DNA from: Paraspadella gotoi
Taxonomy: Eukaryota > Animalia > Chaetognatha
Length of the DNA: 11,329 bases
Assembly: GCA_051294375.1 (NCBI GenBank)
Contig: JBJCIZ010000546.1
Span: 1-11,329, forward strand
Reading direction: 5' to 3'
Shown here: piece by piece, positions 2,356 through 11,329 of the stretch
How positions within the stretch are numbered: position 1 is the first letter of the stretch
Layout of the letters: each line of letters begins with the position of its first letter
The notes under the pieces: model-generated
Told to the model about the DNA's origin: nothing
Databases searched by the model: none
Seen by the model: only the letters and a program-made list of their open reading frames with translations
Translations under genes and position numbers: made by a program

Positions 2356-2489
2356 ATCAAAACGTCCCCTTAGAATCCGGTGAGGGGCGCCCCACGCGAC
2401 CGTCCCTCCGCAGTAGACACTCGAAGAAGGGACTGCGCTCGGCAGACCAATCTCCACGCGGACAGATAGACGCCGCGAATCCACGCCCG

Positions 2490-3340
2490 CGAGCGAAGGC
2501 TTCTGAAACCGCCATAGCGTGTGTCCGAAACCCACCGGGGGCGCAGAAGCATCTGCTTCAAAAAAGCTCCTTGAGAATGAGGCGAAACACTGCGCGAGCC
2601 AGTGGTGACGAAAAAGGCGGCGAGCGGGGGTGCAGAAAAGAAATTGTGGCCGGGACGGGCAAATTTCGAACAAAGGCCAATTGCGAGCGCCTGAAACCCG
2701 GGCAACGATCCCAGAGAGCGGGCAGCGAATAGAAGATGGAAACGCCCTGGACCCATGTGTCCAGAACCCTGTCCGTCCTCGAAGGCGTCGATGGCAAACC
2801 CAGACCGAACGTGATCTGCCGCTGAAGGAGAGCGCCGTGTGTCGCAACGAAGCAGAGACGATCTCTGAAGGGCGCACCGAACTGACGCTAAAGCGACGGA
2901 GAAAGAGTCGAGCGTCGTAGAAGGATCCGCATCGGCGGGATCCGAAGTGCGCCGAGTCGACGAATGCGTAAAACCGAGCGCATTCACGTGGGGAAAAATC
3001 GACGTGAAGGGAGGGCGTCTCTCGAAAACCTCCCTTGAGAAGAGCGCCGGACCACAGGAAGCTCTGCCAACCCGGCGCTCCCGGCTAGGGGGGGGAGAGT
3101 AGCTGAGATGGCCGCGATCTGAGCTGTACGAGAGGTCCTCGAACACTCTCCTATCCTGAAGGAAGTCGCAGGAGCACCAAGGCTCTGGCTAGCTGCTCTC
3201 CGGGTAGCGAGCCTCTCCAGCGTCGACGATGGACGGAGAAGGGTGGAGTCGTCGATTCGAGAGAATGTGCACCGCCTAAAAACCTTTCCAACGAGAGTGC
3301 CGAGATGCGATCCGCCTGCGGTGTGCGAAAGGGTTCCGAC
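2490..3340 (-). pseudogene. DIRS tyrosine recombinase (YR), frameshifted as sequenced; N-terminal limit uncertain
   Basis: LERFLGG...PP (~3295-3250) and ARALVLLRLPSG preceding the expected catalytic Arg (~3190-3145). An HxxR-like motif reads H-P-A-R after removing one C (~2632-2620). QMLLRPRWVSDT-TLWRFQKP (~2555-2498) resembles the DIRS YR ending W.S..TF.RFY.KP. Confidence 0.75.
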
Positions 3341-3429
3341 GACGAGCAGGTGCGACGCACGAGGTTTGTTCGAGGGCGTCGCGCCAGGCAGAGGCGCCTC
3401 CGCGTCCAGAAACCCTGAAGAGGAAAAAG

Positions 3430-5330
3430 GAGGCCTCTGGAAACCACTTCTGAGACCGGCCAAACGGGGGTGATCAGGAGAAGGGAGAACCTCGCCTTCT
3501 CCAGCTTCGGAATGCACCATCATCAGCAGAGGAGGGGGAGGAAAAGATAGGCCAGTGGACAGCTGGCCAGGGCTACCCCGCAGCGGCCTCCACGAAAAAA
3601 ACGTGGAACTTGAGCCGACCGGGAGTCGCTCGAAAAAAACGATGTGGAGGGACCGATATGTTTCGACATTCCGATTCCTGCTGCAGAAACCTCTCGGAAG
3701 GAGTGTCCAGTCCGCGTTCACTTAGCGGCCCCTCTGACGACCCGCGCGCCGTGATGATAATAGTCTCTGCTTTCCGAAGAGAGAATGGACTCCTGCTTGC
3801 ATACCGTCTCCATCCCGCTACGAAGCGGCAGTGAGGAGAGACGAAGCTTTCGTCGTCTTCCAAGGATGGAACGCGCCGTCGGAAGGAAGAGCTTCGCTTG
3901 GAGAGTCCTACTGAACGCTTTCACGAAAAGGAGAGGGCAGTCTCCATTGACGCAGGCCCACAGTTGACCCGATGCGAAAACCCCAGTCCCTGCGATGAAG
4001 CACTCCGTCGTCACGGCTAAGGGCAGAGGGAGGCGGCTCAGCGCAGGAGGGTCTGTCGATCGGGACGCCGAGGTAGCCTAGGCTGAGACGAGGCGCGTCC
4101 AGCGCTTGTCCTCTTCATGGCGACGGGCCGGCAGAGTTGGAGATGGGAAACGAAGCGCCAGCCTCACCGAGATACCTCTCACCTTCGACGTCGTTCACCT
4201 TAGCGTGAGACACGACTCCCCGGGGAAATTCGTCGAGCCGACAAGGGACGGGCTAGAGCTCGATCCAGAGTCGGACCGTCGAGAAGAACGCGTGAGACCT
4301 CTGACTGGCCAAACGTTGACAATCGATACTGCAGCGTAGCACGGTCGCCAAGGACGCCGCCTGTCGAATGGCCTACGAGCTGAAGGACCTGACGAGCACG
4401 TGTGTGCGGTGTGGCAAAGATTTCCCCGCGAGAAGCGAAGCAAGTCGATTTTCGTCTCGTGGAGCGCGAAATGGGAGTGGGAAGAGGCCTGCTCCCAAAC
4501 GATAACCGAAGAAATTCGACAGCTCTGCAGAGGAGACAGGCTCGACTCTGAAGTGGATGGGTGACACCCCGCTCCTTCTTGAGTAGCCCACACCGTCCTT
4601 CCGAGTGGCGACTCGTCGACAATTGTCCGCCGAGGAAAAACTCAGGATCCAAGATGCCGTCTACAATGAAAAAAATGCAATCAATCCCATTGGTCGAGGC
4701 GGAGGGCCAAAGACTAAGGGGGTTCCCTCGTCGTCTGTGAAAAGCAAGGGCGCGGCCGATCGTAGAGCGCGCGAAAAGAAAGGGATCTGTACTGGTAGAC
4801 GCGCCCTCTCCAAAGGAAGCGGCCAAAGTCTTCGATGATCCTCCGTTGGGACGGAGAGAAGGAGATAAGCAATCGTCGGGCGGGTGCTTCACCGAGGCAC
4901 CCAGAGGCGCTCCCATCGACCTCGAAACATCCGTTCTACGTCCGGGGCTCCTCCCTCCGGAAATAAGCGGCGGCGAAAGGGAGACGAGAGTTGAAGCTTC
5001 TTTTAAGTTCAAAAATCGGGGCGCCAGGCCTCCATCTTTCTTTCGTAACAGAGGAAAAACATTGCGAAAAGAACCCGGAGAAACCGGGACTACCCTTGAT
5101 GGCCGTCTCTCCCCAAAAGCCGCCGCATCCTTCCGCGTCGACCAAGGCGTTCTCGGTCCCCAAAAGACGGTGTCGCGTCCGAGGAAGATTGGAAAGCGTC
5201 TGGAAACTCTTCGCCCCTCGAGGCGAATTCCCGAGAAGTTATCGAGAATTGGCGACGTCTCGCCAACGAGGGTCGTCCAGGGGTTGAAGCAGACGAGAGC
5301 CCGACCTCACTCGACGGGGACTTCACCGAA
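3430..5330 (-). pseudogene. pol: DIRS pol: reverse transcriptase + RNase H + methyltransferase-like domain (frameshifted as sequenced)
   Basis: Motifs read across frameshifts: PV..GR...F..WTTL....ILD..SGIRLE (~5325-5220); KKDGG-WR-PI-LNLK (~5045-5000); DFGRFLWRGRVYQYRSLSF (4830-4774); CIFFIVDGIL at the YxDD position (~4679-4650); RNase H VTT-D-ASSQGLG (~4014-3981) and NAD (~3715); MT-like FFSWRP...FPPPPLL...KLEKARFSLLLITPVWP-SQKWFP (~3600-3438). Confidence 0.9.
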
Positions 5331-6366
5331 GAAGCACCGGCGCGGAAAGATCCGTGTCGAGACTTCGGTCCATGGCGGATCCGGCACTAAAACTGGGCGG
5401 TCTCGGACGAAGGCGCGCCGCGAGGCGAGGCGTTCGAGTCACTTCGGCCGGGATGCGAATCCCCGGCCCTTCCCGTCTCCCACTTCTTGCTGAGGAACAG
5501 ACTTCATGGGTTTCCACATGCTGCCTTGAAGGTAAGACCGTGAGGGAAATGAGAGGCGCTTCCAGTCGGCAGTGGGTTCTGCGCCGAGCGCGCACGTTCA
5601 TGAAAGCGTCGAATTGAGCGCCGATTCCAGCTGCCGCCTTCCTGAATACCAAAAAGGAAGAAGATCGGTCTGGCCGCGGAGCGAGAAGGCGTGTGCCGGA
5701 ATCCTCGGCGCCACAAAGCGAGTACCTTGGCGCGCGGATCTCGCCGACTGAAAAGGTTGAGGGACGCCGCTTGAATAAGAAGCCGCGTCGCGAAGCGCGG
5801 CGGCAAAGCGGCATCGCCCAACGCTGACCTCAATTTCTGACGAGCCGGAAGCGGAGAGCCTCCTTGATTCCGCGCAGCTCATCGGAAACTAAGGATGGCA
5901 GCGCGGTAGCGCCGTTCGTCTGCATCGCACGTGAAAGGAGGCGGAGAGTAGCCGCGTTATTCCCCTTGGAAAACGCGACTCGAATTGAAGCGAGAGGCAA
6001 CGTGTTCCGGCGTCGGAAGCGGTGAACTCCGGAGGAGAAGCGACGTCGATGCCAGTGGCGTTTACTGCCGATCGCTGGGCGTTCCCAGCGAGTTCCAGTG
6101 TGCCGTGAGGAAGACCCCTTCCAACAGCGAAGAAACGCCACATGTAACGAACCTGGAACCGGCGCTCGACCTGCTCGGTGGCAGGAAGCCGCTCGAAAAC
6201 CGCCGACGTCGTCATCCGAAGACGAAACGTTTCTCCCTCCTCGCCGAATCGGAGGAGTACTTGCGCGTCCGGAATCCGGCACTGTGTGGATCGATTGACG
6301 CTTGGGTAGAGGCGAGACTGTTGTGACGGTCCGAGGCGGTGCGCCCCGATCTGATGAGGGGGCCGC
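5330..6366 (-). pseudogene. DIRS ORF1 (gag-like), predicted exon 2, frameshifted; 3' end approximate
   Basis: The frame is open from 6366 (AAPSSDRGAPPRTV...SSSDDDVGGF) into ORF 5830..6282. Overlapping minus-strand ORF fragments continue to the pol start. Positional assignment. Confidence 0.5.
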
Positions 6367-6904
6367 CTACTGAGTCGGAACAGCAGAAGAATTCGAGAAC
6401 TCATCAAAACGAGGCGAAGCGTAGTGGAGAGAAAAAACCGACCCGATATGGAATGTCACATGTAAAAAAAAACGTAAGCGGAAACAATTAGCGCGAGAAT
6501 TAAACGGAAAAAAAAACTCCCGAACCCCCCCCCTCTCTCCCAACCCGCCCTTCCCTAAGCCACCCAAAGCCACAAAAAAAACATGGTAGGAGAACAAAAA
6601 AAGGGCTGGACGTGGTGATCGGGCGAGGCGGACGCGATTATAGACTTATATTCCTAAAGGAATTAAAAATTCTCATATCGCGTCCGCCTCGCCACGAAAA
6701 TGCCCCATGCCAAGAGGCCGGAGGAAGAGCGGTTTATTTCAACAAAATTAATTCGATCGAATCAGACGAAATAAAAAATTCTAAAAGTTCCAAAAATCGA
6801 ATAATTCGAAAAAAGAAAGAAATAACGGAGAAACAAAAGAGGGAGGCGAGCGTTGAAAACGAGCTTAAAACCCCCACTACGCATATGCTCGGGGAAAAAC
6901 TCAC
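6367..6904 (-). other. Predicted 538-nt spliceosomal intron in DIRS ORF1
   Basis: Donor GCC|GTGAGT at 6904 and acceptor ttcttctgctgttccgactcagtag|GCG at 6367. The interior is T-rich, unlike the flanking GC-rich coding DNA. Phase-0 joining links the frames of ORFs 6734..7180 and 5830..6282. Confidence 0.65.
6622..6706 (-). other. Internal complementary region (ICR) of the DIRS element
   Basis: The + strand reads ggcgaggcggacgcgattataga-cttatattcctaaaggaattaaaa-ATT-ctcatatcgcgtccgcctcgccacgaaaatgcccc. This is the element's sense-strand 3' end plus rE, one ATT, then its 5' end, so the sense strand here is complementary to both termini. Confidence 0.9.
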
Positions 6905-7312
6905 GGCCCCAAAGCGTCGAAACCGCCGCTGAGACTCGGCGCGAAAATCGTCGAAATCCATCCTAAAGCTGTTGCAGTGACGAAGACATCTCGTAAGGAC
7001 AGACTCGCAGTCCTCTGTCTCGTCATCCGCGCAGTGGGGGATACCAGACCGGCCGCACAGGTCCGAGAGCCAGCGAGAGGGCGCCTGGACTAAGCCCCAC
7101 CGCTCGGCGGGCAACGCAAAGTGTCGGTTGGGTACGGGCCGAGTCCCCAAAACCGACGGAATCGGGCTGCCGAAAACCACGTAAAAGGGGGAAAGGCGGT
7201 GTCGGTGGGGCAGGTGGCGGCGGGGCGAGACCGCTCGAGTCTCCCTTAGGACCTCTCAAGCCCCGAGGGATCTTCCAAACCCTTCTCTACGTTTTAGAGA
7301 CATGTCCGACAT
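6905..7312 (-). pseudogene. DIRS ORF1 (gag-like), predicted exon 1, frameshifted as sequenced
   Basis: First ATGs inside the 5' ITR boundary are at 7312/7303 (MSDMSLKRR). A Pro-rich stretch follows, then ...WLSDLCGRSGIP...DFDDFRAESQRRF, ending at a GTGAGT donor. Assigned by position only. Confidence 0.55.
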
Positions 7313-7476
7313 TTTTCGGGCTGTCAGACTTCTTGTCGAACGTTCGTCTCTACTTGACTCTAATGAGCGGGTTTCGAAGCGTAGATATACGAGAAAATCG
7401 TGAAAAAAGTCAAGAAAAAAAACGCGGAAATCAAGTAAGGAAACAACCGAACTAGGATGAGCGCGAAAAAGAATTA

Positions 7477-7694
7477 GGCTTTCGTATACCCGGATGAGGG
7501 AGGGCCGGATTGGGATTTGCCGGGCTCCCATTGGTTCGAAGGCCGGTCACGTGACGGCTTCCCCTGATTTTTCTTTTTTCATCCTATCCGAGGTTATTTT
7601 GTTCGTTTTTTCTTACGTCTGATAAACGCGCGATCTATCGACTAGCGCGAACCCAAAAAGGGCATTTCGTGGCGAGGCGGACCGATATGAGAAT
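7477..7694 (-). repeat. 5' inverted terminal repeat of the DIRS element
   Basis: Its reverse complement (attctcatatcggtccgcctcgccacgaaatgccc...gggaagccgtcacgtgac...ggtatacgaaagcc) aligns with 2164-2355. Confidence 0.93.
7480..7555 (-). promoter_or_regulatory. Candidate Pol II promoter motifs in the 5' ITR
   Basis: Palindromic E-box GTCACGTGAC (7546-7555, also 2279-2288). Two CCAAT boxes on the minus strand (7534-7530, 7513-7509). Weak TATA-like GTATAC near 7489-7484, about 170 nt upstream of the ORF1 ATG. Confidence 0.4.
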
Positions 7695-10765: not shown

Positions 10766-10775
10766 NNNNNNNNNN
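10766..10775. other. Assembly gap (10 N)
   Basis: Run of n characters; contiguity across it is not guaranteed. Confidence 1.
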
Positions 10776-11010: not shown

Positions 11011-11329
11011 TTGTTTTGACAAGGAATAACAAATATTTAGTATTAAGCAATTCATAGTAGAATTTACAAGTTCATTTTTATTACTTTCATGCTAATATTT
11101 TGATTCTTATGAACAAATCATTTTTCAAGGCAGTTCTTTTGTATTTTGCTTCTCTCTCTTTCTCTCTACCTAACTTTTTCTGGAACTATTTACTTTTACT
11201 CTGGACTGCCTTTAAAAATGATTAGTTCATAAGAAACAAAATGTTGGCAAAAAAGTAAGAAAATTATACTTATAAATCTTACCACAAATCGCTTAATACT
11301 AAATATTTTTTTATTCCTTGTCAAAAAAA
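11011..11329. mobile_element. Foldback/MITE-like long inverted repeat, running off the window end
   Basis: Arms 11011-11134 and 11205-11329 are reverse complements over ~125 nt (e.g. ttttgacaaggaataa...tattaagc vs gcttaata...ttattccttgtcaaaa). The spacer is 70 nt and pyrimidine-rich. Confidence 0.8.

Follow-up and report, generated by a model that had tools for sequence, protein, structure and literature searches.

The DIRS-Type Element and Its Surroundings

The window, as we call the whole 11,329-nt stretch of Paraspadella gotoi contig JBJCIZ010000546.1 that was analysed, carries on its minus strand a DIRS-type element of 5,560 bp (7694-2135), which has ATT at both ends and no target-site duplication, the two flanks differing in sequence. 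Self-comparison places its left inverted terminal repeat at 7694-7477 and its right one at 2355-2164 (minus strand), with 76% identity over 225 columns; a separate alignment of the two gave 177 matches, 6 substitutions, and 21 gap events. Outside the right repeat lies an extension of 29 nt (2163-2135, minus strand) that forms a small hairpin with AATAAA in its loop and finds its complement only in the ICR described below; it sits on the tyrosine recombinase (YR) side, as it does in 6/6 canonical loci having both ends. Self-comparison found no long direct repeats inside the element, which sets it apart from the PAT, Ngaro, and VIPER elements with their split direct repeats. The inverted repeats, ATT ends, right extension, the reverse transcriptase (RT), the methyltransferase (MT), and the YR identify the element as DIRS-type. 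Within the left repeat there is a donor-like GTAAGA at 7616, and a second T-rich stretch, besides the one treated below, lies directly inside that repeat (7500-7401, both on the minus strand); together these two features could represent a leader intron.

The genes were located with profiles built from 30 pol ORFs and 28 YR ORFs of loci fetched for their DIRS RT motif (95 loci; 93 + 2), using frameshift-aware alignment to the window. A DIRS-type RT with many frame changes matches at 5191-4343 (73.6 bits on the minus strand, against 17 on the plus strand and a maximum of 28.5 in 20 shuffles). It is followed on the same strand by a weak RNase H start at 4018-3944, whose score was reached by 2/100 shuffles, and by a methyltransferase-like motif block at 3567-3435 (34.7 bits; maximum of 20.8 in 30 shuffles). 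The region 3450-2340 reached 42.1 bits with the YR profile (maximum of 27.9 in 100 shuffles), and on this match the segment 3168-2410 is a tyrosine recombinase, again with frame changes; YR sub-profiles run separately over the whole element gave weak or non-significant scores. Thus, RT, methyltransferase motif, and YR are all encoded on the minus strand. The reading frames of the window had no meaningful match in Pfam, a result that for the RT is explained by the frame breaks. Protein searches with fragments from the window gave no match, nor did PDB sequences, viral contigs had 0 matches to two RT motifs, and Rfam gave 0 matches.

Two host exons lie upstream of the element in the same orientation (8881-8640 and 8565-8262, minus strand), separated by a 74-nt GT-AG intron and giving 182 codons without a stop; the element is probably within the next intron of that host gene. 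The preponderance of gap events over substitutions between the terminal repeats (21 vs 6), together with the intactness of these exons, suggests that the frame breaks in the element come mostly from errors in unpolished long reads of a repeat that is young, not from decay. The start of the host exon product may resemble USP35/USP38; Pfam gave no match for the exons and the atlas returned weak eukaryotic HEAT-like clusters. Elsewhere in the window, a 236-residue low-complexity open frame at 10045-9335 (minus strand) belongs to another host gene and has no family match, ten N at ~10766-10775 mark an assembly gap, and an inverted repeat with 125-nt arms (83%) at 11011-11329, cut by the window end, is possibly a small fold-back element.

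An ICR Upstream of pol

DIRS1-like elements carry an ICR complementary to both of their ends, and that of the present element was sought with a circle junction probe consisting of the last 60 nt and the first 60 nt of the element with the ATT shared. The probe aligned over 6627-6705 with a score of 115, while 200 Markov shuffles of the interior gave a mean of 23.6 and a maximum of 34. The ICR occupies 6706-6622 on the minus strand; its left half (~6706-6669) complements the left end and its right half (~6671-6622) the right end, with an overlap of AAT. Self-comparison of the copy, which the earlier note had proposed as a check, recovered the inverted repeats together with an inverted match of 37 nt and 94.6% between the left end and 6705-6669. 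A junction-only probe made of the right extension and 12 nt of the left end scored 58 at the ICR (null maximum 29). No junction match was found at 2356-2495, between the YR end and the right repeat (score 17; null mean 17.4), in 2356-6500 (score 22; null mean 23.2), or in 6760-7476 (score 22; null mean 20.5). The distance from the ICR is 988 bp to the left end and 4,267 bp to the inner edge of the right repeat, so that two statements of the earlier note stand, namely that the only complement of the junction lies at 6622-6706, ~1 kb from the 5′ end and ~4.3 kb from the 3′ ITR, and that there is no such match between the YR end and the 3′ ITR. Since the genes run on the minus strand, the ICR is upstream of pol on the element's coding strand. 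Position, complementarity to both ends, and gene order are directly supported.

The match covers ~38 nt of the left end and ~47 nt of the right end and then stops, while the repeats continue for ~200 nt, which identifies 6622-6706 as an ICR and rules out a tandem junction of two copies. The ICR folds into a long hairpin (z -7.5 and -6.6; 0/200 shuffles as good) built like those of six canonical ICRs. Given this fold and an extension on the YR side, it appears that the ICR alone has moved; the location of the extension likewise disfavours an inverted coding cassette. The two ICR arms (6683-6677 and 6639-6633) share one base that is absent from both ends (7683-7681 and 2175-2177) and resemble each other more closely than either end, and in a canonical element (L094), too, the arms agree with each other at a place where they differ from the left end; the hairpin may be preserved in its own right. 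Just beyond the ICR, 6620-6586 has a loose likeness to the terminal repeat (27 nt, 74%) and is perhaps a remnant of a longer copy of the ends from which the ICR arose.

It could be asked whether the layout reflects an accident in a single copy, either rearranged or misassembled, with a block that carries the ICR having passed from the 3′ end to gag, or with several copies combined in one mosaic. Errors are clearly abundant in this sequence, and the layout is known from one copy. Nevertheless, this explanation requires two events, a 3′ loss and a 5′ gain, and the YR alignment ends at 2410, ~55 nt from the right repeat, a gap too short for an 85-nt ICR and to be compared with 267-1,154 nt in six canonical loci. 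Furthermore, the flanks of the block match nothing at the 3′ end, there is no duplication at the block edges, an inversion between the repeats would have moved ICR and genes jointly, and the ICR, with a perfect 17-bp stem, still fits both ends of the same copy. We therefore consider an accident of this kind unlikely.

The ICR Position Among DIRS Elements

A 3′ ICR is given as the rule in the available portions of three publications (PMC3266345, PMC8969392, PMC7192593), and it is near the right end in all 28 elements, one of them chimeric, that have coordinates in supplement S3 of PMC3266345. Of the 95 fetched loci, 35 extend at least 1.9 kb upstream from the RT motif, 44 extend at least 2.45 kb downstream, and 20 do both. 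In 17 loci, representing 14 families at 80% RT identity, an ICR arm was assignable to one of the ends, and it was at the 3′ side in 17/17; the assignments were made by the author, that of L007 by position only. Three further loci had a 3′ hairpin only. The statement in the earlier note that canonical ICRs lie near the 3′ end is therefore borne out, and the present element departs from the canonical order of left repeat, genes, ICR, and right repeat, in which the ICR comes 3′-most in the internal region.

Inverted pairs at the 5′ side only were seen in six loci and rejected as 5′ ICRs. The pair in L049 is an inverted copy of gag coding DNA at the contig start, that in L058 is outside the homology of the locus to its family, and those in L025 and L071 are outside the mapped left end, as is the pair in L048 judging by family position; L034 is a split-direct-repeat element whose pair is upstream of its left repeat. 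Two fetched loci have peculiarities of their own. L094 (3992-8890) is a complete canonical DIRS element on a contig of 1.5 Mb that is catalogued as part of a bacterial MAG, where nearby TG microsatellites suggest eukaryotic DNA in the bin. L075 (RT motif +2620 to +3499) is canonical with ~0.9 kb between ICR and right repeat, far above the others, possibly owing to an insertion.

RT identity to 42 fetched loci was at most 33% in a noisy alignment, with no close relative among them, and a tree of RTs from 42/95 loci left the element on a long branch beside L084 with weak support (62). The survey thus shows the rarity of a 5′ ICR, not the state within the element's own family. The earlier note had suggested a distinct structural subclass: the layout does depart from every DIRS1-like element compared, while a subclass, as opposed to one odd copy, is likely rather than demonstrated. 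The whole picture comes from one indel-ridden copy, in which the departure in ICR position is real and well supported. The available portions of the literature consulted describe no 5′ or intronic ICR (PMC3266345, PMC7192593, PMC4157794, PMC9210276, PMC3783388, PMC8969392, PMC2685390, PMC6681497, PMC5718144, PMC5890265, PMC12477816, PMC5580714), and Repbase/Dfam may already contain such families.

The T-Rich Block and the Putative gag Region

The ICR is embedded in a T-rich block of 538 nt (6904-6367, minus strand), a location that is new here and absent from the earlier note. The coding strand is GC-rich with T ~0.23 at 7313-6905 and 6370-2400, and the T content of the block is 0.40, compared with 0.21-0.25 in flanking and pol/YR sequence. 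Segmentation gave a log-likelihood gain of 36.5 (maximum of 9.7 in 20 shuffles on a coarser grid) with edge intervals of 6838-7016 on the left and 6367-6387 on the right. A donor-like GTGAGT at 6904-6899, the sole GTRAGT of the 5,121-nt interior, falls within the left-edge interval, and the acceptor region at the right edge (6407-6367) has a branch-like TTGAT at 6407, a pyrimidine tract, and a tandem acceptor CAGTAG at 6372-6367, with no AG dinucleotide between 6518 and 6401. The chance of the donor placement is 0.026 with Markov shuffles and 0.09 with local shuffles, and for the right edge, with its branch motif, pyrimidine tract, and YAG, it is 0.043, values that are guides only, the splice criteria having been chosen after sight of the sequence. 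The consensus words are those of general knowledge, not of a trained splice model. The block and its splice-like edges are plain features of the DNA, and the presence of donor, branch, pyrimidine tract, and acceptor at the edges of what looks like non-coding sequence makes 6904-6367 a likely spliceosomal intron within the gag region. ICRs do not ordinarily have T-rich surroundings, given that the ICR flanks in 7/8 canonical loci have a T content of 0.26-0.34, near that of their own coding DNA; the exception is L067 (0.42).

With the second AG (6367) as acceptor for the donor at 6904, a 117-aa open frame is connected to one of 178 aa, and with the first AG (6370) a stop falls within the long frame; acceptor scanning normally favours the first AG. 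Random joins opened equally well in 917/3,759 cases (24%), and the indel-rich sequence renders the reading phase unreliable and frame arguments weak.

The GC-rich block upstream (7313-6905, minus strand) is the putative first gag exon, with GC 0.61, T 0.23 as in pol/YR, and an ATG near 7313; its composition would fit a coding sequence. The Cys-richest 30 residues of the minus-strand interior begin within it, at 7063. Comparison with the sole gag zinc finger among the fetched loci (L076) was not significant, 31-61/100 shuffles reaching the score, and the first-exon frame had no relatives among viral contigs and no usable atlas match. The one match to this frame among representatives (P0002; E 1.3e-6) was rejected, being a 13-repeat chitin-binding protein in which weak matches sum. 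The rest of the putative gag region is placed at 6366-5300 (minus strand) by position and composition (GC 0.62) and did not match any of 58 fetched gag-region ORFs significantly.

Alternatively, 7313-6905 may represent a promoter or leader that is rich in GC, and gag may begin after 6400. In that case, the 5′ ICR would be a family trait located in a long unspliced 5′ leader and its position would be neutral, ends being repaired as in DIRS-1 by cDNA folding back on the ICR wherever it is placed. Such an arrangement agrees with the missing homology of the putative first exon, with an ATG near 6403 in a 188-aa open frame, and with the varying placement of internal repeats among PAT elements in the accessible part of PMC4157794. 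However, it leaves unexplained why the two edges in composition have a donor and an acceptor signal, respectively, and why the upstream block has the composition of coding DNA, and we regard it as rather improbable, though a stronger candidate than an accident in one copy.

Implications for Replication

In DIRS-1, deletion of the ICR blocks retrotransposition at a step after cDNA synthesis; the cDNA is by then nearly full length and lacks only the left repeat, and the ICR acts after first-strand synthesis (PMC7192593, portions available). The same portions report that marker introns disappear in new copies, that an intron set near the 5′ end was incompletely spliced, and that the RT works in trans (PMC7192593). 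Extrapolating from DIRS-1, the transcript of the present element would lack the outer ends, the cDNA would rebuild them on the ICR, and cDNA deprived of the ICR would give no insertion. If the block is spliced and 7313-6905 is coding, spliced RNA would serve for protein only, its cDNA being a presumed dead end with no template for the ends. Conversely, cDNA from unspliced RNA would fold back on the ICR, have its ends rebuilt, and be inserted by the YR at ATT. Because the ICR is essential in DIRS-1 and would be absent from spliced RNA, insertions would derive from unspliced RNA only and the intron would be locked in, escaping loss despite the element's passage through RNA. We give about even odds to an ICR that lies, ~1 kb from the left end, within a likely gag intron and makes unspliced RNA the only source of insertable copies. 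A broader reading, which takes the layout as a family trait, is that in a DIRS lineage the template essential for end repair came to lie in a gag intron, with the intron thereby locked and splicing choosing between protein and new copy; we give it a slightly lower probability, roughly 0.4.

A different role for the 5′ position had been suggested in the earlier note, in which near-complete cDNA would be needed before the ICR is copied, thus selecting against internally truncated templates. By its position the ICR would indeed be copied late in first-strand synthesis. Yet repair of the left end needs cDNA reaching the left repeat whatever the ICR position, and a template with a deletion at any place within 6600-2356 would retain the two repeats as well as the ICR and could be served by an RT acting in trans, as that of DIRS-1 does (PMC7192593, portions available). 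Internally deleted copies with ICR and ends do exist among canonical loci (L012, L058). Selection of this kind is accordingly very improbable and the proposal finds no support.

The 3′ ICR has been regarded as an invariable feature of DIRS1 elements. A functional element whose ICR is 5′ would demonstrate that the repair of ends is independent of ICR position, which bears on a model of DIRS replication that is still partly untested. If the ICR is intronic, as in the preferred reading, it would explain in concrete terms how a spliceosomal intron can persist in a retrotransposon, and splicing would be a switch between translation and copying that is open to exploitation by the host for control. 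Annotation tools expecting a 3′ ICR would misread families with a 5′ one.

Comparison With Known Systems

With DIRS1-like elements, including DIRS-1 of Dictyostelium, the present element shares inverted repeats, an ICR whose complementarity extends to both ends and overlaps by 3 nt, ATT ends with an AAT junction (the most frequent type), a right extension, and a hairpin-forming ICR, as described in the accessible parts of PMC3266345. The size of 5.6 kb is also shared, as is the order RT-RH-MT then YR, in which the RNase H match is weak here. It differs in having the ICR upstream of pol and within an intron-like block, whereas theirs is between YR and right repeat, and in having almost no gap between YR and right repeat. 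PAT-like elements of nematodes and echinoderms (Pat1, Kangaroo) provide a precedent for an internal junction copy that shifts position between lineages. Those elements, in contrast, have split direct repeats, and their internal copy either separates MT from YR or lies close to the 3′ end, with none upstream of pol described in the portions available (PMC4157794).

The dependence proposed here, where a needed cis element in an intron limits copying to unspliced RNA, has counterparts among intron-bearing retroelements. Retroviral packaging signals lie downstream of the splice donor. Goodwin and Poulter are said to have reported, in 2004, spliceosomal introns in some YR retrotransposons, and introns alone are therefore probably not new. 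In plant Ty1/Copia elements with spliced gag RNA, splicing likewise parts the RNA for protein from the RNA for copying, according to the available portions of PMC5580714. What would distinguish the present element from other intron-bearing retroelements is that its intronic part is a template for the repair of DNA ends after reverse transcription, not a packaging signal.
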